Source: Dongiaceae bacterium
GTDB taxonomy: Bacteria > Pseudomonadota > Alphaproteobacteria > Dongiales > Dongiaceae
Length of the DNA stretch: 64,000 nt
Reading direction: 5' to 3'
NCBI GenBank assembly: GCA_040881945.1
Contig: JBBECF010000157.1
Location: 13,301-77,300, forward strand
Shown here: positions 3,846-13,647 of the stretch, piece by piece
Layout of the letters: each line of letters begins with the position of its first letter
Numbering within the stretch: position 1 is the first letter of the stretch
Position numbers and translations under genes: made by a program
The notes under the pieces: generated by a model
Database searches by the model: none
Told to the model about the DNA's origin: nothing
What the model saw: only the letters and a program-made list of their open reading frames with translations

Positions 3846-4018
3846 GTCAGCCTCCTTCGGTCCGGCCTCGCCGCACCGGCATTCGCCGCGGCGCACCGCT
3901 GTCCGAATCGATTCTAAGTCCACGGCAAGGGCGTGGCTAGGGTGCGCAAACGACTCGTGGCGGTCCGGGCTATCGGACTCGTCCCCTGCTCCGTCGACGG
4001 GGGCTCGCGCGGCTAAAT

Positions 4019-4043
4019 TGGAATGATACTAGTAATTATTCCA
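4019..4043. promoter_or_regulatory. 25-bp near-perfect palindrome TGGAATGATACTAGTAATTATTCCA, candidate operator upstream of pqqA
   Basis: TGGAAT and ATTCCA arms flank a central ACTAGT. It sits in an AT-rich stretch about 65 bp upstream of the predicted pqqA -35. Confidence 0.35.
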
Positions 4044-4083
4044 TTCAAGACCCGGAAAACGAACATGTTTTCTTCCCCACATG

Positions 4084-4113
4084 TTGACACCATTCCGCTT
4101 GTCTGCGTATAAG
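4084..4113 (+). promoter_or_regulatory. sigma70-like promoter for pqqA (TTGACA-18 nt-TATAAG)
   Basis: TTGACA at 4084-4089 and TATAAG at 4108-4113, about 50 nt upstream of the pqqA ATG. It is flanked by two ACATGT palindromes at about 4064 and 4079. Confidence 0.5.
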
Positions 4114-4161
4114 GAGACTGTGACCTCAATCATATTAGAAAACTTCCAAGGGGGGCAAGAC

Positions 4162-4236
4162 ATGAAATGGGTTGAACCGACCTACTGTGACCTACGGCTG
4201 GGCTTCGAAGTCACCGCTTACGTCTACGTTCGTTAG
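4162..4236 (+). CDS. pqqA: PqqA precursor peptide (24 aa): MKWVEPTYCDLRLGFEVTAYVYVR
   Basis: Own translation; too short for the ORF track. It matches the PqqA signature (W3, R..G.EVT.Y with the Glu-X3-Tyr crosslink pair, C-terminal R). AAGGGGGG SD lies about 8 nt upstream, and pqqD/pqqE follow. Confidence 0.9.
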   Translation: MKWVEPTYCDLRLGFEVTAYVYVR

Positions 4237-4251
4237 CGGGTTCCCCGGGGG

Positions 4252-4275
4252 GGGGTCGGGTTTGCGCCCGACCCC
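4252..4275 (+). promoter_or_regulatory. GC-rich stem-loop just after pqqA (GGGGTCGGG-tttgcg-CCCGACCCC), no U-tract
   Basis: Perfect 9-bp stem 16 nt after the pqqA stop. It resembles the attenuator/stabiliser hairpins reported after pqqA in other pqq operons. Confidence 0.5.
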
Positions 4276-4317
4276 TCTCCAACGATCAACGCGCACCGCT
4301 TCCGCACGACGTCGACC

Positions 4318-4605
4318 ATGACGGGTGACCCTCAGATTCGGGCCATCGACTTCGTCGAGATCAACCCGCTGTACCTGTTTCGGTGGGAAGACCCGCAACA
4401 GGCCTATGTGTTGCTCTACCCGGAAGGCATCGTCAAACTCAACGGAACGGCTGGGGAAATCCTGAAGCTGTGCACCGGCGATAGAACCGTCGCGCAAGTC
4501 ATCGACGAGCTCGAGCAGAAGTTCCCGGGCGAGGCTGTCGCCGATAGTGCCCACAGGTTCCTGGAGGTCTCCCATGCCAAAGGCTGGATCAGGGTTAAGT
4601 CTTGA
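4318..4605 (+). CDS. pqqD: PqqD, PqqA-binding chaperone (RRE domain)
   Basis: 95 aa; the LYPEGIVKLNGTAGEILKLCTGDRTVAQVIDELEQKF pattern is typical of PqqD. It overlaps pqqE. Confidence 0.85.
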   Translation: MTGDPQIRAIDFVEINPLYLFRWEDPQQAYVLLYPEGIVKLNGTAGEILKLCTGDRTVAQVIDELEQKFPGEAVADSAHRFLEVSHAKGWIRVKS

Positions 4606-5725
4606 CGGTCTGGGGCAGCCGCTCTGGCTGCTGCTCGAGTTGACCTATCGCTGCCCGCTGAAGTGCCCGTGGTGCAACAATCCGGTCGATCTCGACAACT
4701 ACCGGAATGAACTCAGCACCGAGGAGTGGGTGCGCGTCATGCGCGAGGGCCGCGAGCTGGGGTCCCTGCAACTCGGATTCTCCGGCGGCGAGCCGGTGCT
4801 GCGCCCGGACCTGGAAGAGTTGATCGGCGAGGCCCATCGCCTCGGTTACTACACGAACCTCATCACCTCCGGGATGGGTCTGACGGCGGAGCGATTGCAG
4901 GCCTTCAAGCAGGCGGGCCTGCGGCAGATCCAGCTCAGCATCCAATCCTGCGATTCCACAATCACCGATTGGCTGGTCGGCAGCAACGGAGCCCACGCGC
5001 ACAAGCTGAATGTGGCGCGCGAGATCAAGGCCCATGGCTTTCCCATGGTCCTCAACGTGCCGGTCTGCCGCCAGAACATCGACCAAACCGAGCGGATCCT
5101 CGAGATGGCCGAAAGCATCGGCGCGGACTATCTCGAGTTCGCCAATCTGCAGTACTACAACTGGGCGCTGCTGAACCGGTCGGAGTTGCTTCCGACACAA
5201 GCCCAACTCAGACGCGCGGAGGCCTCGGTGAAGGCGGCGCGCGAGCGTCTCGGCAAACGGATGACGATCTATTTTGTCATCCCCGATTATTTCGACGGCC
5301 ACCCCAAGGCGTGCATGAACGGGTGGGGAGCGATCCACCTCACCATCGCGCCGGACGGCGCCGCCCTGCCCTGCCAGGAGGCGCGCGTCATCAAAGGTCT
5401 CGAATTCCCCTCCGTGCGCGACGCGAGCCTCGAGTGGATCTGGCGCGACTCGCCGATCTTCAACCGCTTCCGCGGCGACGACTGGATGAAGGACCCGTGC
5501 CGAAGCTGCGACAGCCGGCAGCAGGACTTCGCCGGATGCCGCTGTCAGGCCTACCTGCTCACCGGCGACGCCGCCAACGCCGATCCGGCCTGCAGCCGCG
5601 CGCCGCACCATCATCTGATCGAGGCGGCCGTGGCGGAAGCCGAGGGCGAGCATCGTGTCCCGCGACCGCTGGTCCTGCGCAAGCGGGGTGCGATCGCGGC
5701 CGCCCCCGTCGACCTGGGGCAGTGA
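4574..5725 (+). CDS. pqqE: PqqE radical-SAM/SPASM enzyme (PqqA Glu-Tyr crosslinking)
   Basis: LELTYRCPLKCPWCNNP (CX3CX2C), GFSGGEP, KACMNGWG, and the SPASM motif CRSCDSRQQDFAGCRCQAYLLTGDAANADPAC, collinear with canonical PqqE. ATG 4574 has GGAGG 6 nt upstream. The ORF-track start at 4547 is a GTG without SD. Confidence 0.9.
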   Translation: MPKAGSGLSLDGLGQPLWLLLELTYRCPLKCPWCNNPVDLDNYRNELSTEEWVRVMREGRELGSLQLGFSGGEPVLRPDLEELIGEAHRLGYYTNLITSGMGLTAERLQAFKQAGLRQIQLSIQSCDSTITDWLVGSNGAHAHKLNVAREIKAHGFPMVLNVPVCRQNIDQTERILEMAESIGADYLEFANLQYYNWALLNRSELLPTQAQLRRAEASVKAARERLGKRMTIYFVIPDYFDGHPKACMNGWGAIHLTIAPDGAALPCQEARVIKGLEFPSVRDASLEWIWRDSPIFNRFRGDDWMKDPCRSCDSRQQDFAGCRCQAYLLTGDAANADPACSRAPHHHLIEAAVAEAEGEHRVPRPLVLRKRGAIAAAPVDLGQ

Positions 5726-5820
5726 ATCTGCCGCACGACACTCTGGAGGGCACCGTCCTCGCAGGGATCTTGCTGACGGCGGCGCTCGCCCTGCTGATGC
5801 GCTGGCTGGGCGTCGGATAG
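5722..5820 (+). CDS. Candidate 32-aa single-TM peptide (M)NLPHDTLEGTVLAGILLTAALALLMRWLGVG, GTG start overlapping the pqqE stop (GTGA)
   Basis: Own translation. The start/stop overlap suggests translational coupling and the peptide has a hydrophobic helix. There is no convincing SD and no homology that I can assert. Confidence 0.2.
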   Translation: MNLPHDTLEGTVLAGILLTAALALLMRWLGVG

Positions 5821-5888
5821 CAGGCAAGAAGGGCAGCACGTCGGCCGGGCCGTTGCAACGGTCGGCCCGCAGGAATCGGCGGCGGCGC

Positions 5889-6392
5889 ATGGACCTTTCG
5901 ACCTTCGACATTGTAGCGCGCTGGATCCACGTCATCGCGGTCGTGACATGGATCGGGCACAACTACGCGAACGCCGTGCAACAGCCGGCGTTCCGGCCGG
6001 TCGCCCCCGACGACCCGCCGGAGGCGGCGCGCGCCGTCTTCATGGCGGCCCTGGGACGCGAGCATGCGCTGTTCCGCTATGCCTCGCTGGTCGCATGGGC
6101 CACGGGCCTGTTCATGCTGTGGTATCGCGGGCTGCTGCTCGACGCGTACATGCTGTCGGGGGACGCGGCCGCGATCGGCGTCGGGACGTGGACCGGCACC
6201 ATCATGGTGCTCAATGTGTGGCTGTTGCTGTGGCCGCATCAGCGGAAGGTGCTCGGGTTCACGCCGGCGACCACGGAAGAGCGCATTCGCTGCGCGCGGA
6301 TCACCTTCCTCACGGCGCGGACCAACACGATCCTGTCGTTTCCCACGATCTTCTTCATGGTGGCGGGGGCGCACGGGCCGCTCTTCGGATGA
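5889..6392 (+). CDS. Integral membrane protein, 4 predicted TM helices, conserved His motif (WIHVIAVVTWIGHNY)
   Basis: 167 aa from MDLSTF. Hydrophobic segments are at about 10-30, 70-90, 105-130 and 145-165. The N-terminal motif is reminiscent of CopD/PuuD-type membrane domains (recollection only). Its stop TGA overlaps the next gene's ATG (ATGATG). Confidence 0.6.
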   Translation: MDLSTFDIVARWIHVIAVVTWIGHNYANAVQQPAFRPVAPDDPPEAARAVFMAALGREHALFRYASLVAWATGLFMLWYRGLLLDAYMLSGDAAAIGVGTWTGTIMVLNVWLLLWPHQRKVLGFTPATTEERIRCARITFLTARTNTILSFPTIFFMVAGAHGPLFG

Positions 6393-7510
6393 TGGCCCGG
6401 CCGTTCAATTTCGCCGCCGGGCCGGGCATGCTGCCGGAGACGGTGCTGGCCCGCGTTCGCGAGGAACTGCTCGATTGGCGCGGTAGCGGCATGTCGGTGC
6501 TGGAGATGCCCTTCACCGGCCCGGAATTCGCCGAAATCCAGGCCGACGCCGTCGAGCGGCTGAAGCGCCTGCTGGCCATCCCCGTCAACTACCGCGTGCT
6601 GTTCCTGCAAGGCGGTGCCTACGGTCAGTTCGCCTTCGTCCCCCTGAACCTGCTACGCGGCCGGACTCGGGCGGCCTACGTCGAAACCGGCCACTGGTCC
6701 CGCCGGGCCATGACCGAGGCGCGGCGCTATTGCAGCGTCGAGACGGTGGCCAGCGGCGAACCCGACGGCTTCACGCGCATACCGCCGCGCGACGTCTGGC
6801 GGCTGTCCCCGGACGTGGCCTACTGCCACATCACGACCAACGAGACGGCCCAAGGCGTGCAGTTCCATTGGACGCCGGAGACCGCGGCGGTGCCGCTCGT
6901 CGCCGACATGACCTCCGATTTGCTGTCCCGACCGATCGACGTGGCGCGCTACGGCCTGATCTACGCCAGCGCCCAGAAAAGCATCGGTCCGGCGGGCCTG
7001 ACCATCGTCATCGTTCGCGACGACCTCCTGGGCGCGGCCCTGCCGGGAACGCCGGCGGTCTTCGACTACAAGAGGCAGGCCGACGCGGGGTCTCGGGTCA
7101 ACACGCCGCCCACCTTCGCGATCTACGTCGCCGGGCTCGTCTTCGAGTGGCTGGCGGAACAGGGCGGTCTGGCCGCGATGGAACGGCGGAACCGGCGCAA
7201 CAGCGCCAGACTCTACGCCGCCATCGACGCCAGCGGCGTCTATCGTTGCCCCGTTGCACCCCTCGACCGTTCGACGACGAACCCGTGTTTCCGGCTCGCC
7301 GACGAATCGCTCGAGGCGGATTTTCTGGCCGAGGCGCGCCGGCGCGGCCTGCTGAACCTCCAGGGACACCCGGCCGTGGGCGGCGTCCGCGTCAGTCTCT
7401 ACAATGCGATGCCCGATGCGGGCGTGGACGCGCTGATCGATTTCATGGCGACGTTCGCGCGTCGGCGCGGGCGATCGCGGCGGGAGCGAGGCGGGCGATC
7501 GGCGCCATGA
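6389..7510 (+). CDS. SerC-family (phosphoserine aminotransferase fold) PLP aminotransferase, divergent substrate pocket
   Basis: Collinear with E. coli SerC as I recall it: FNFAAGPGMLP, YRVLFLQGGAYGQFA, TNETAQG, SAQKSIGPAG (catalytic Lys), NTPPTF, GGVRVSLYNAMP. The conserved SHR is replaced by PFT, and GHR by GHP. Confidence 0.8.
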   Translation: MMARPFNFAAGPGMLPETVLARVREELLDWRGSGMSVLEMPFTGPEFAEIQADAVERLKRLLAIPVNYRVLFLQGGAYGQFAFVPLNLLRGRTRAAYVETGHWSRRAMTEARRYCSVETVASGEPDGFTRIPPRDVWRLSPDVAYCHITTNETAQGVQFHWTPETAAVPLVADMTSDLLSRPIDVARYGLIYASAQKSIGPAGLTIVIVRDDLLGAALPGTPAVFDYKRQADAGSRVNTPPTFAIYVAGLVFEWLAEQGGLAAMERRNRRNSARLYAAIDASGVYRCPVAPLDRSTTNPCFRLADESLEADFLAEARRRGLLNLQGHPAVGGVRVSLYNAMPDAGVDALIDFMATFARRRGRSRRERGGRSAP

Positions 7511-8754
7511 ATGCCTTCACCGTCGTCTTCCTCGCCGCGCTCGCCGCCGCAGTCGGCCTCGAGACCTGGTTGAACCTGCGCCAGCTCGCCCATCTGCGGG
7601 CGCACCGGTCAGCCGTGCCCCCGGGCTTCACGGATCGCGTGTCCCCGACCGCCCACCGGAGGGGGGCGGACTACACCATCGCGAGGACCCGGCTCGCCGT
7701 CGCCGTAACCGGCCTGGACGCCGCGTCGTTGCTGGGCTGGACCGTCGGCGGCGGGCTCGACCTGCTCGATAGGGCCTGGAACGCCCTGGACCTGGCCGCA
7801 CCCCTGGCGGGCGCCGGCGTGATCGCCAGCGCCCTACTGTTGAGCGCGCTGCTTCGCCTGCCGCTCGCCGCCTGCCGCCGGTTCGCCGTCGACGCACGCT
7901 TCGAGCTCAATCGCACAACGCCGCGGCTCTTCGCGACCGACGCGCTTACGAAAGGACTCCTGCTCGCCGGCGTGGCCGCGCCCCTGACCGCGCTGATCCT
8001 GTGGTCGATGGACGCCGCCGGCAGCCTGCGCTGGCCGGTCGCCTGGGTCCTGTGGACGGCCTACGTCGTAGTCCGGACATGGGCCTATCCCGGCCTCGTC
8101 GCGCCGCTGTTCAATCGCTTCGCGCCGCTGCCCGACGACGGATTGAGAAAACGGATCGCGGCGCTGCTCGAGCGCTGCGACCTGCGCCTTGGCGAGGTCG
8201 CGGTCATGGACGGGTCGCGGCGCTCCACGCACGGCAACGCGTCCGTCGCCGGGATCGGCCGCGGCAAGCGGGTCGTGCTCTTGGACACCCTCGTCGATGG
8301 TCTCGATCCCGACGAAATCGCCGCGGTGCTAGCCCACGAGCTCGGCCACCTCAAGCGTCGCCACATCGCCAAGCACCTCGCCGTCACCGCCGTCGCCAGC
8401 CTGGGATGCCTCATGCTCCTGGGCTGGCTCGCGGCGCGACCCGGCTTCTTCGCGGGGCTGGGTGTGGACCGGCCATCGCCACAGGCCGCGCTGGCGCTGC
8501 TGTTGCTGAGCCTGCCGACGCTCGCGGTGTTCGCGAAGCCGCTGGTCGCCGCCGTCTCGCGACGCTTCGAGTTCGAGGCCGACGCCTTCGCCACCCGCCA
8601 CGTCGATCCGCGCCTGTTGGTCCGCGCGCTGGAAAAACTCTATCGAACGAATGCGGAGAGCCTGTCGTCCGACCCGATCTATTCGGCGTTCCACCATTCG
8701 CACCCGCCGCCGCTGGCGCGCATCACGCGCCTGGCGGACGCCGTGTCGGGGTAA
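7507..8754 (+). CDS. M48 family zinc metallopeptidase, Ste24-like with N-terminal multi-TM domain
   Basis: HELGH at LAHELGHLKRRH and a downstream FEFEADAFA third-ligand motif. There are several N-terminal TM helices. The ATG overlaps the stop of the preceding gene (ATGA). Confidence 0.85.
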   Translation: MNAFTVVFLAALAAAVGLETWLNLRQLAHLRAHRSAVPPGFTDRVSPTAHRRGADYTIARTRLAVAVTGLDAASLLGWTVGGGLDLLDRAWNALDLAAPLAGAGVIASALLLSALLRLPLAACRRFAVDARFELNRTTPRLFATDALTKGLLLAGVAAPLTALILWSMDAAGSLRWPVAWVLWTAYVVVRTWAYPGLVAPLFNRFAPLPDDGLRKRIAALLERCDLRLGEVAVMDGSRRSTHGNASVAGIGRGKRVVLLDTLVDGLDPDEIAAVLAHELGHLKRRHIAKHLAVTAVASLGCLMLLGWLAARPGFFAGLGVDRPSPQAALALLLLSLPTLAVFAKPLVAAVSRRFEFEADAFATRHVDPRLLVRALEKLYRTNAESLSSDPIYSAFHHSHPPPLARITRLADAVSG

Positions 8755-8775: not shown

Positions 8776-9060
8776 CTACGGCTTTGCGACCTGGCGGCGA
8801 AATTGCTGCGGGGCGCTGCGCCCGATCAGGTTCTGGGCCATGGCGCGCGCCTGCGCGCAGGTCAGGGCGCCGTGCGTCCCGATCACCCGGCGGCACCTGA
8901 CGCCGCTGACCGCGGTGCGGTAGTAGGCGAAATAGGCCGGCCGCCCGCCCGGCGGGACGACGCACCCGAACCCCCATAGATCGGTGTCCCAGAGCACGAC
9001 CATCCGCGCGCCGGGGCGCACCGACCCGACCGTCTCGTCCGTCAACTGTACGCGCGCCAT
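8776..9060 (-). pseudogene. Remnant of a tyrosine integrase: arm-type DNA-binding (DUF4102-like) N-terminal domain only
   Basis: MARVQLTDETVGSVRPGARMVVLWDTDLWGFGCVVPPGGRPAYFAYYR...GTHGALTCAQARAMAQNL matches the LTD..VK....WD..L.GFG.RV...G...F...YR pattern of P4-type integrase N-termini. No catalytic domain follows; the M48 gene ends 22 bp away. Confidence 0.5.
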
Positions 9061-9129: not shown

Positions 9130-10392
9130 TCAAGAGACAGGCCGCGGCGTCGGCGGGTAGGTCAGCAACATCTGGTTGGTGCCGTTGAGCACGGCATAGA
9201 GCCGGTCGAACTCGGTCTTGAAGGCCGGCCAGTCGAGGCGACCGGATTCCGCGACCGAGACGGCCTGGTGCAAGTCCGTCAGATTGCGGTGGCCGTCCAC
9301 CCGGGTCAGGATCGGCACGGCCCGCGGCGGCAGCGCGAACCGGGCGTCGATGCCGTCGACGCGCAACGCCAGAACCGGCCCCGGCTTGATGCGATCCACG
9401 AGATCGGCGGCGGCGCAGCGGTGCAGGATCGGCACCGCCGCCGGGTCGTCGGGGCGCGCGACCGCCTGGCCGGCGCGCCCAGCCTTGACGACGTAGCAGA
9501 CATGGCGTTTCAGGTTGCCCGCCAGCAGCTCGGCGAAGGCCGCGCGCTCGAACCGGCCGAGCCCGGCGAGCCGCTTGAGGATCGCGCCGTCGCTCACATA
9601 TCGCGCCGGATCGTACCGCCACGGTTCGATGAAGCTACAGATCTCGAGTCCCGCGCCGGTCACGAGCTCGACCAGTTCCGGGACCGTATAGGGGCGGTCC
9701 CGGCCGTGCAGCAGCAGGTCGTACAGCCCCGCGTCGCCGCCGCGGATGTGGTCGACGACGACCGGATTGCGGGCGAACCAATTGGTCGGCGGCAATTGCT
9801 TCAACAGTCGCCGCGCGACCTCGACGTGCGTCGCCGGCGGGTCCGCCGGCGGCGTCAGCCGCCGCAGCATCGCCTGCATCTGATAGACGCCGGTGCGGCC
9901 GAGCGCGCCGTACACCATCAAGGCCATGCCGCCGTCGCCGACCAGCGCGTCGGCAAGCGCACGCAGCGCCACCGGGGGGTCGTCGAGATGGTGCAGCACG
10001 CCGACGCAGTCGATGTAATCGAACCGGCCGAGCCCGAGCGCCGCCAACTCGGTCAGGGAACCGACGACGAAGCGGGCGTTGCCGAGGCCGCGCGCCGCCA
10101 CCCGCGCCTCGGCGATGCGCGTCGAGGCGGCCGACAGATCGAGGTGGACCACCTCGGCCGGGCAGCCGCGATCGGCGAGTCGCTGGGCCAACATGACGGT
10201 GACGTCGCCGGTGCCGCCGCCGGCGACCAGGACGCGGAACAGCCGGCTGAAATCGCGCCGCCCGGCATAGACGTAATGGTCGATTTCGTCGAGATGACTC
10301 TGCGTCGTCTCGATCAGGCGCTTGGCCTCGTCGCGCGGGTCGCGCGCCGGATAGGGATAGACCTCGTACTGGTCGCGAACGGGATCGGTCAT
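9130..10392 (-). CDS. Class I SAM-dependent methyltransferase (420 aa, with C-terminal extension)
   Basis: Motif I VLVAGGGTGD, an acidic loop HLDLS, and DYIDCVGVLHHL typical of Methyltransf_11/25-type folds. Confidence 0.75.
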   Translation of the reverse strand: MTDPVRDQYEVYPYPARDPRDEAKRLIETTQSHLDEIDHYVYAGRRDFSRLFRVLVAGGGTGDVTVMLAQRLADRGCPAEVVHLDLSAASTRIAEARVAARGLGNARFVVGSLTELAALGLGRFDYIDCVGVLHHLDDPPVALRALADALVGDGGMALMVYGALGRTGVYQMQAMLRRLTPPADPPATHVEVARRLLKQLPPTNWFARNPVVVDHIRGGDAGLYDLLLHGRDRPYTVPELVELVTGAGLEICSFIEPWRYDPARYVSDGAILKRLAGLGRFERAAFAELLAGNLKRHVCYVVKAGRAGQAVARPDDPAAVPILHRCAAADLVDRIKPGPVLALRVDGIDARFALPPRAVPILTRVDGHRNLTDLHQAVSVAESGRLDWPAFKTEFDRLYAVLNGTNQMLLTYPPTPRPVS

Positions 10393-12333: not shown

Positions 12334-13647
12334 CTAGCCGACGACGCGCGCGAGCGCCGAATCGAGCGACAGCTCGTGGCGCTCGCCGGTCGCCCGCCGC
12401 TTCAGCTCGACGGTGCCGGCGGCCAGCCCGCGCGGCCCGATGACGAGCTGCCACGGCAGCCCGATCAGGTCCATGCCGGCGAACTTGGCACCCGGCCGCT
12501 CGTCGCGGTCGTCATAAAGCGCCTCGGCGCCGGCCCGGCGCAATTTTCCATAGGCGTCGTCGCAGGCCGCCGCGCAGGCGGCATCGCCCGCCTTCAGGTT
12601 GATCAGCCCGACCTTGAACGGCGCCACGGAGTCCGGCCAGACGATGCCGTCGTCGTCGTGGCTGGCCTCGATGATCGCGCCGACCAGCCGCGACACGCCG
12701 ATGCCGTAGGACCCCATGTGCACCGGCGTCGCCTCCCCGTCCGCCTTGGCGACAACGGCTTGCAGCGGCTCGGAATACTTGGTGCCGAAATAGAAGATGT
12801 GCCCGACCTCGATGCCCCGCGCCTCCAGCAGCTCGTCCTTCGGCACCGGGCAGGCGGCCGGGTCGTGCTTGTGGTCGGTCGCCGCGTAGAGGCGCGTCCA
12901 GGCGTCGACCACGGGCTCCAGGTCGGCCTCGTAATCGACCTCCGATCCGAGCACATCGAAGGCCACGAAATCGCGGTGGCAGAACACGGCGCTCTCGCCG
13001 GTGTCCGCCAGGATGACGAATTCATGGCTCAGATTGCCGCCGATCGGCCCGGTCTCGGCTTCCATCGGGATCGCCTTGAGGCCCATGCGCGCGAAGGTGC
13101 GCAGGTAGGCAACGAACATCTTGTTGTACGACCGCTTGGCCCCGGCGTAGTCGAGGTCGAAGGAATAGCTGTCCTTCATCAGGAATTCGCGCCCGCGCAT
13201 GACGCCGAAGCGCGGCCGCACCTCGTCGCGGAACTTCCACTGAATGTGGTAGAGCAGCTTCGGCAAATCGCGGTAGCTGCGCACCGCATTGCGGAAGATG
13301 TCGGCGATCAGCTCCTCGTTGGTCGGCCCGTACAGCATCTCGCGATCGTGCCGGTCGGTGATACGCAGCATCTCCTTGCCGTAGTCCTCGTACCGGCCGG
13401 ACACCTTCCACAGATCGGCCGACTGGATCGTCGGCATCAGCATTTCCTGGCACCCGGCACGGTCCTGTTCCTCGCGCACGATCTGCTCGACGCGCTTGAG
13501 CACGCGGAAGCCCAACGGCAGCCAGGAATAGATGCCGGCGCTGGCCTGGCGGACCATGCCGGCGCGCAGCATCAGCCGGTGCGAGACGATCTGCGCCTCG
13601 GCCGGGTTTTCCTTCAGCGTGGGCATGAAATAGGCGGACAGACGCAT
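12334..13647 (-). CDS. proS: Prolyl-tRNA synthetase (alphaproteobacterial short type)
   Basis: [34 protein letters not shown], class II motifs ([17 protein letters not shown]), and a C-terminal anticodon-binding domain. Start taken at the internal ATG 13647. Confidence 0.9.

Follow-up and report, generated by a model that had tools for sequence, protein, structure and literature searches.

A SerC-like aminotransferase without the phosphate-binding His-Arg clamp in a second pqq operon of a Dongiaceae bacterium

Introduction

What does an aminotransferase with the fold of phosphoserine aminotransferase (PSAT; SerC) do when the residues that hold the substrate phosphate have been lost, and when its gene stands among genes for the cofactor pyrroloquinoline quinone (PQQ)? 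This question is raised by a 64,000-nucleotide stretch of DNA from a Dongiaceae bacterium (positions 13,301 to 77,300 of contig JBBECF010000157.1, assembly GCA_040881945.1), referred to here as the window. The SerC-like gene stands fifth among the cistrons of a compact operon that runs pqqA2, pqqD, pqqE, a membrane protein gene related to the N-terminal domain of PuuD, the SerC-like gene and an M48 peptidase gene, with a 32-residue open reading frame (ORF) after pqqE (Table 1); pqqB and pqqC are absent from it. Start-stop overlaps of the ATGA type couple the membrane gene, the SerC-like gene and the M48 gene, and the SerC-like gene is co-inherited and translationally coupled with genes for PqqA processing. 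The reading put forward here, with moderate confidence, is that the SerC-like enzyme helps this second pqq operon to make PQQ, or a compound closely related to it, by a route that does not depend on O2.

Denitrifying methylotrophs grow anaerobically on PQQ-dependent dehydrogenases though PqqB and PqqC need O2, and the one set of genes put forward to date as a candidate for O2-free PQQ synthesis includes the SerC-like gene. The genes Hden_0548-0553 of Hyphomicrobium denitrificans have been placed in the SoxR/sHdrR regulon with anaerobic functions (Mol Microbiol 2025;124:204, PMC12423496). In the same study, clusters described as pqqAED-puuD-serC-pyrD were reported beside classical pqq genes in several denitrifiers, with the aminotransferase named a putative SerC, and it was speculated that such clusters finish PQQ without O2, PqqB and PqqC requiring O2 or H2O2 (PMC12423496). 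Among the papers searched, no experimental follow-up of this 2025 proposal was found. The operon itself has already been noted in print; what is new here is the lost clamp, the clade structure, the linkage counts and the FNR/Anr-type boxes.

A SerC Fold Without the Phosphate Clamp

The SerC-like ORF is intact, comprising 373 codons with no stops, and encodes a protein of 373 residues which phmmer aligns end to end with solved PSATs, the Pseudomonas aeruginosa enzyme (4xk1) being matched at E=7e-121 with about 56% identity and the Escherichia coli enzyme (1bjn) at E=1.7e-107; identities to PSATs lie between 56 and 64%. An AlphaFold2 (AF2) model built on 44 clade members reached a predicted local distance difference test (pLDDT) score of 93.6, PSAT structures superpose on it at template modelling (TM) scores of 0.92-0.97 with a root mean square deviation (rmsd) of 1.3 Å, and every top Foldseek match was a PSAT. 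The key residues of the window protein are A9, P41-F42-T43, Y78, W103, C146, T153-A154, D173, T175, Q196-K197, N238-T239, C300, H327-P328 and R334. Among these, the residues that serve the pyridoxal 5'-phosphate (PLP) cofactor (K197, D173, W103, T153 and N238-T239) and R334, which binds the substrate alpha-carboxylate, are present and conserved in both of the clades described below, their roles being taken from work on PSAT (PMC6043687). The original prediction, a reading of the sequence by eye, had described the protein as collinear with PSAT, with its PLP machinery and alpha-carboxylate arginine intact, and every residue named in it is found to be present and conserved in the family. The ratio of nonsynonymous to synonymous substitution rates (dN/dS) of 0.28-0.39 is below 1 and denotes purifying selection. 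As was also anticipated, annotation pipelines label the gene serC: the family model NF003764 gives the window protein 481 bits (cut-off 253), and cultured members of the subfamily (Marinobacterium, Halomonas and Billgrantia) carry the NCBI name '3-phosphoserine/phosphohydroxythreonine transaminase'. The TIGR01364 score of 436.7 falls just under the trusted cut-off of 443.6.

The HMMER alignment is ungapped around both motifs that bind the substrate phosphate in PSAT, with 'vlemPFTgpef' in the window protein against 'vmemSHRsddy' in PSAT at the first, and 'lqGHPavggvRvs' against 'lkGHRsvggmRas' at the second. In the structure of Arabidopsis thaliana PSAT1 (AtPSAT1) with phosphoserine, the phosphate is hydrogen-bonded directly by H396 and R397 together with H110 and R111 of the other subunit, and the substrate carboxylate is held by R403 and W171 (PMC6043687). 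Five landmark offsets between AtPSAT1 and the window protein agree (W171/W103, T221/T153, D241/D173, K265/K197 and R397-R403/P328-R334), and they put Phe42-Thr43 at H110*/R111*, His327-Pro328 at H396/R397 and Arg334 at R403. In E. coli SerC, the equivalents of the phosphate-binding His-Arg pair are H41/R42. As the alignment is ungapped, the earlier claim that SHR has become PFT did not come from a shifted reading by eye, and the ligand positions known from AtPSAT1 are indeed replaced.

A profile of the clade was run on 1.84 billion representatives, and the top 150 representative clusters were examined. The PF[TS] motif occurred in just three of these, so that the clade is small, and xHR was kept in nearly all. 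On this census the loss of His42-Arg43 is a rare, diagnostic change. The companion claim, that GHR reads GHP in the second His-Arg pair, fared less evenly: the change is there, with His327 kept and the arginine replaced by Pro328, but it has little diagnostic value alone. The same arginine is replaced by K, A, V or S in some SHR-type proteins, and in proteins that keep SHR, among the 150 representative clusters, GHK was counted 12 times, GHA five times and GHV twice. Because position 328 also varies in SHR proteins, the loss of Arg328 by itself is weak evidence, and GHP was rejected as a strong signal.

In a comparison with the 120 closest proteins of a 5.8-billion-protein collection, residues 41-43 read PF[TS] or a comparable non-SHR motif in 57 proteins and SHR in 64. 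A maximum-likelihood tree was built after the motif columns had been deleted, and the 57 PFT-type proteins, which come from several phyla, still formed one side of a branch with a Shimodaira-Hasegawa-like approximate likelihood ratio test (SH-aLRT) support of 100. The clamp-less 'EMPFTG' subfamily is conserved and monophyletic and not a one-off. From the SHR group to the PFT group the fixed differences are S9A, S41P, H42F, R43T, V146C, I154A, S175T, P300C and I337L, some of which (S9A, V146C, I154A, S175T and P300C) adjoin catalytic residues, while G75-G76-A77, W103, T153, D173, S176, Q196-K197, N238-T239, H327 and R334 are invariant in both groups. This pattern indicates that the PFT clade has kept the PLP chemistry as well as the anchor for the alpha-carboxylate, and that the predicted side-chain pocket has lost two or three positive charges and gained one aromatic residue and two cysteines. 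The pocket would also be roomier, since Ile has become Ala beside the threonine that contacts PLP-O3'.

Linkage to the Second pqq Operon

Ten genomic loci with a non-SHR SerC were compared: the window, L023 (Pseudomonas oligotrophica), L024 (a metagenome-assembled genome, MAG, of Bacteroidota), L027, L028 (Marinobacterium), L029 (Halomonas) and L041-L044. In all ten, the SerC-like gene comes immediately after pqqA2, pqqD, pqqE and the membrane gene, an arrangement seen in none of eight SHR loci. The scan of genome contigs with the back-translated peptide gave mainly SHR serC loci, which served as negative controls, and L023 and L024 emerged from it as unexpected positives. When metagenome contigs were scanned for back-translated GFEVTAYVYVR, at least 80 loci were obtained, and all 80 listed matches encode a genuine PqqA2 ending at a stop codon. 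The SerC-like gene lies 2.1-3.4 kb downstream in 26 of the 31 listed metagenomic loci with at least 2.6 kb of downstream sequence, and the SerC-like motifs that can be read in the listed loci are PF[TS] or SFV in 32 of 32 cases and never SHR. Among the genomic and listed metagenomic loci examined, the gene was never found in serA, serB or aro contexts, and its likely function lies with its pqq neighbours, to which the original prediction had not linked it.

The precursor peptide encoded by pqqA2 (MKWVEPTYCDLRLGFEVTAYVYVR) is itself distinctive. Its C-terminal GFEVTAYVYVR, followed by the stop, is invariant in 11 loci and in the 80 listed metagenomic matches, nearly all copies (the window; L064-L143) have a cysteine at position 9, and a second tyrosine stands two residues after the cross-linked one. 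It differs from the native alpha-type PqqA of the genome (MAWTSPKIVEICVGLEINSYACAGL). Conservation is much stronger in PqqA2 than in ordinary PqqA, and the sequence of PqqA2 suggests that more than the E-x3-Y pair is under constraint. Clusters of this kind are rare: of 400 other sampled genomes of the phylum, one has the PqqA2 pattern.

The gene that follows the SerC-like one varies. In most loci (at least 22 metagenomic ones together with L023, L024, L028 and L029) it encodes a divergent DHO_dh (PyrD-like) flavoprotein, and an M48 peptidase in that position is a minority variant shared by the window, L027, L041, L043 and L044, the M48 gene standing divergently upstream in L042. A tblastn search found no orthologue of the cluster-type PyrD-like protein in the window genome, where the sole match was the canonical pyrD at 30% identity; a weak second DHO_dh match on contig C124 was set aside, being unlike the cluster-type proteins. 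The five exceptions among the 31 metagenomic loci are L064 and L141, which lack the SerC-like gene, L131, with two radical S-adenosylmethionine (SAM) genes, and L140 and L121, in which the genes after pqqA2-pqqD encode, in place of PqqE, a TonB-dependent receptor and a HemN-like O2-independent coproporphyrinogen oxidase. The last two metagenome contigs show a rearranged cluster among genes for anaerobic biosynthesis.

Phosphoserine Aminotransferase in the Host Genomes and Origin of the Gene

The window genome (3.37 Mb in 218 contigs, 97.7% complete) was searched for a second, canonical serC, as the original prediction had advised, and one was found. Contig C47 carries a TIGR01365-type SerC (591 bits, cut-off 448) flanked by an HAD-type phosphoserine phosphatase gene (serB) and a phosphoglycerate dehydrogenase gene (serA), in the order serB-serC-serA. 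An SHR-type SerC is also carried by five of five other host genomes with a PFT-type gene. The SerC-like gene is probably not the cell's phosphoserine aminotransferase. That it would act on a non-phosphorylated substrate, as had been proposed from the motifs, gains support from the fixed changes of a monophyletic group, from the constant pqqA-D-E context and from the SHR-type SerC in every host tested.

The SHR serC of Marinobacterium aestuariivivens (L061/L063, genome G043, C1:1048130-1049204) aligns with the family model as two segments, positions 1-90 and 91-356, that lie in different reading frames, a sign of an assembly error, a frameshift or a pseudogene. Should the split be real, the PFT paralogue would be the sole intact E. 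coli-type copy in that genome.

At E<=1e-40, no E. coli-type SerC was detected in 40 related genomes, 24 of them from the same family. The SerC-like gene is therefore patchy, with no vertical history to follow, and it was probably acquired horizontally by this alphaproteobacterium. The GC content of the operon is slightly lower than that of its flanks (0.668 for positions 4001-8000 of the window against 0.707), and an isolated ORF with an integrase arm-binding domain lies directly downstream of the M48 gene. Together with the lack of a SerC-like gene in relatives, these features fit an operon acquired as a mobile unit.

Canonical PQQ Pathway and Possible Low-Oxygen Control

In addition to the second operon, the window genome has a native pqqA followed by pqqB, pqqC, pqqD and pqqE, split over contigs C123 and C209, the only contigs on which pqqB and pqqC occur. 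Positions 1-481 of C123 and the last 481 bp of C209, which carry pqqABC and pqqCDE respectively, overlap over 481 bp at 96% identity, and the break probably reflects strain heterogeneity in the MAG and not two pqqC genes. Three PQQ-dependent dehydrogenases are encoded in the same genome, and PqqC is present in four of four other hosts tested.

The sequence TTGAT-N4-ATCAA is the consensus of the regulators FNR, Anr and Dnr. Boxes with at least nine of ten matches within 300 bp upstream of pqqA2 were found in 19 of 73 listed metagenomic loci, ten of the boxes being perfect, and in four of 11 genomic loci. The background on the same contigs is 0.017 per 300 bp, so that about 1.3 boxes would be expected in 73 loci and the observed number is about 15 times higher. 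A NirK is scored in the window genome at 324 bits against a cut-off of 296.

Proposed Function and Alternatives

From its sequence and setting, the protein is best described as a new functional variant in the SerC family, the dedicated aminotransferase of a second pqq operon without pqqB and pqqC, mis-annotated as serC; it is probably a tailoring enzyme. How it might work can be set out only tentatively. In the boldest version, which we hold to be somewhat less likely than not, a PFT-type SerC homologue and the His-rich membrane protein would replace PqqB and PqqC through a novel kind of PLP step on the cross-linked Glu-Tyr, giving an O2-free two-electron oxidation at C-alpha and possibly a relocation of nitrogen, with PQQ made anaerobically or a new PqqA-derived cofactor as the outcome. 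In the favoured scheme, a descendant of E. coli-type SerC would have been recruited into a second, horizontally mobile pqq operon, in which Glu16 and Tyr20 of PqqA2 would be joined by PqqE and PqqD, and the cross-linked amino acid would then be released by a peptidase, in the window the coupled M48 protein. The SerC-like enzyme would then turn one alpha-amino group into a 2-oxo group, or carry out the reverse. It would use an alpha-amino or 2-oxo acid other than phosphoserine and probably also other than free glutamate, whose gamma-carboxylate is held by that very clamp in the E. coli PSAT structure 1BJO. The most economical candidate, and a natural one for an enzyme whose ancestors used glutamate, would be the released cross-linked Glu-Tyr, a gamma-aryl-glutamate with a tyrosine-type amino acid arm, whose aryl group Phe42, Tyr78 and Ala154 could accommodate and stack upon. 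Transamination would lift C-alpha to the oxo or imine level of C7 or C2 of PQQ with no O2 used. The other oxidations would fall to the His-rich membrane protein, with respiratory acceptors taking up the electrons and water supplying the oxygen, in the manner of urate oxidation by PuuD-type proteins. In clusters that have it, the PyrD-like flavoprotein would likewise deliver electrons to respiratory acceptors, by analogy with the desaturation of dihydroorotate to orotate. The operon would be used alongside the O2-dependent route through PqqB and PqqC.

Several points weigh against a role in O2-independent PQQ synthesis. The part taken by a transaminase in PQQ chemistry, which we infer, is the least understood element. 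Both nitrogens, that of Glu and that of Tyr, stay in PQQ, and there is no obvious need for a net deamination. All hosts keep pqqB and pqqC, and the operon might therefore depend on them instead of replacing them. Two pqqA2 loci, L064 and L141, have pqqD, pqqE and the membrane gene and no SerC-like gene nearby, and the dN/dS of 0.39 against 0.08-0.10 for pqqD, pqqE and the membrane gene makes the SerC-like gene three to five times less constrained than these neighbours. With regard to low-oxygen control, no FNR box occurs in the pqqA2 promoter of the window itself or in that of L027, where an AT-rich region with a palindrome is found instead; its absence, when many orthologous operons have one, suggests a different regulator in this lineage. 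In the window genome, at the completeness given above, NirS was not found and neither NarG nor NapA rose above the family cut-off, and it cannot on that account be called a full denitrifier.

The strongest competitor is that the operon makes a different PqqA-derived product, such as a PQQ analogue, another quinone or a redox-active small molecule, with the aminotransferase diverting the cross-linked Glu-Tyr or the PqqB-made AHQQ by way of a 2-oxo acid. In its favour are a PqqA2 that is distinct and unusually invariant, with its second tyrosine and conserved cysteine, an operon that always stands beside a complete canonical pqq set, and the fact that PQQ needs no net transamination. On the other hand, genes for a PQQ-dependent dehydrogenase and for an aldehyde dehydrogenase immediately precede the operon in Halomonas, the family models rate PqqD and PqqE as true equivalogs, and the FNR boxes fit a conditional replacement of the O2-dependent steps. 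No second cofactor of this PqqA-derived kind is known, which counts further against the proposal, and on the whole we regard it as unlikely.

That the protein is a working phosphoserine or phosphohydroxythreonine aminotransferase which binds phosphate in another way, in effect a spare SerC, is very improbable. Its overall identity to PSATs, an NF003764 score above the cut-off and the retention of His327 and Arg334, with position 328 variable in ordinary SerCs, speak for it. However, His42-Arg43, near-universal direct phosphate ligands, are fixed as Phe-Thr across the clade, every host tested has another SerC, the gene is never placed with serA, serB or aro genes, and TIGR01364 stays just below its trusted cut-off. 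Finally, a paralogue that is in decay or has no catalytic function and travels with the operon, to which the relaxed constraint relative to neighbouring genes and the few pqqA2 loci without a SerC-like gene might point, is the least probable reading of all and was rejected on conservation and dN/dS, as all PLP and carboxylate residues are invariant in 57 members from several phyla, dN/dS is 0.28 at a synonymous substitution rate (dS) of about 1, the frames are intact in 40 or more loci, and the new clade-specific invariant residues (F42 and C146) speak for a gain of specificity and not for decay.

The favoured role in an O2-independent route takes the form of a concrete enzyme hypothesis, in which a clamp-less SerC clade is locked to pqqA2-D-E in operons of which many have FNR-type boxes. 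There is also a consequence for annotation. Hundreds of PFT proteins are labelled '3-phosphoserine/phosphohydroxythreonine transaminase', a name that leads metabolic reconstructions to overcount the serC and pdx pathways. The annotation would be corrected by a rule based on PF[TS] at residues 41-43 together with a pqqE neighbour.

Genes of the Operon and Its Surroundings

The features of the operon and of the adjoining DNA are collected in Table 1.

Table 1. Positions of the operon features and adjoining ORFs in the window.
Feature	Position	Strand	Basis
AT-rich control region upstream of pqqA2	3990..4161	+	Sequence read
pqqA2, 24-residue precursor peptide, E-x3-Y motif kept	4162..4236	+	Sequence and locus comparison
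pqqD2, peptide chaperone	4318..4605	+	PF05402 E=1.7e-14; TIGR03859 89 bits, cut-off 46
pqqE2, radical-SAM/SPASM Glu-Tyr cross-linking enzyme	4547..5725	+	TIGR02109 507 bits, cut-off 381
32-residue hydrophobic ORF, GTG start overlapping the pqqE stop	5722..5820	+	tblastn conservation
167-residue four-helix membrane protein, relative of the PuuD N-terminal domain	5889..6392	+	PF06181 E=1.4e-13
SerC-fold PLP aminotransferase, PFT subfamily	6389..7510	+	HMMER, family models, tree, conservation, AF2 model
Ste24-like M48 zinc peptidase	7507..8754	+	PF16491 and PF01435
Isolated integrase arm-binding-domain ORF	8776..9060	-	
420-residue class I methyltransferase	9130..10392	-	

The control region has about 40-45% GC in a genome of roughly 70% GC, and contains, at about 4019-4043, the 25-bp palindrome TGGAATGATACTAGTAATTATTCCA; the region is conserved in L027, a relative that is 91-98% identical. 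The protein encoded by pqqE2, for which an ATG at 4574 is an alternative start, is 50% identical to that of the other pqqE of the genome, on C209. A counterpart of the 32-residue ORF is found by tblastn at the same position in L023, L027, L029 and L041-L043 with 52-91% identity, and in L042-L044 it has been called as a gene of 33-35 residues. The ORF probably encodes a genuine small membrane subunit that belongs to the operon. The larger membrane protein has six invariant residues (H14, H24, H59, H117, H162 and C135), and its AF2 model (pLDDT 73.8) consists of four long helices; a Foldseek search of the PDB with this model returned generic four-helix bundles only, at E>0.1, with no functional lead. 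The M48 peptidase is a candidate protease for the trimming of PqqA2. Beyond the integrase ORF lies a class I methyltransferase with a long C-terminal extension, which is syntenic in L027, stands outside the operon in other hosts and has paralogues on C133 (65% identity), C149 and C124.

Comparison with Known Systems

The closest known protein is PSAT (SerC, EC 2.6.1.52; NF003764/TIGR01364; PDB 4xk1, 1bjn and 6czz), which shares with the window protein the SerC-type fold of the fold-type I, class V aminotransferases, the PLP lysine, the aspartate, the stacking tryptophan, the PLP-phosphate loop and the alpha-carboxylate arginine. Unlike PSAT, the window protein has Phe-Thr in place of the His-Arg clamp, proline for the second arginine, alanine for Ile154 and two new invariant cysteines. 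Unlike PSAT genes, its gene sits in a pqq operon and not with serA/serB or aro, and in every host tested it supplements a normal SerC.

With the canonical PQQ pathway (PqqA, PqqD/E, a protease, PqqB and PqqC), the operon has in common an E-x3-Y precursor, a chaperone and a radical-SAM cross-linking enzyme, whereas window-type operons lack the O2-dependent PqqB and PqqC of that pathway and have in their place a PLP enzyme, a membrane protein and either a flavoprotein or a peptidase. There is a close likeness to the clusters of the Hden_0548-0553 type (PMC12423496), in which pqqA, pqqD, pqqE, a PuuD-N-like gene and a SerC-like gene follow in the same order and which likewise coexist with a classical pqqABCDE set; those clusters end in pyrD, whereas the window operon ends in the M48 peptidase gene. 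The lost clamp, the separate clade, the 32-residue ORF and the FNR boxes are not mentioned in that study, and they are the features that the present comparison adds to this family of second pqq operons.

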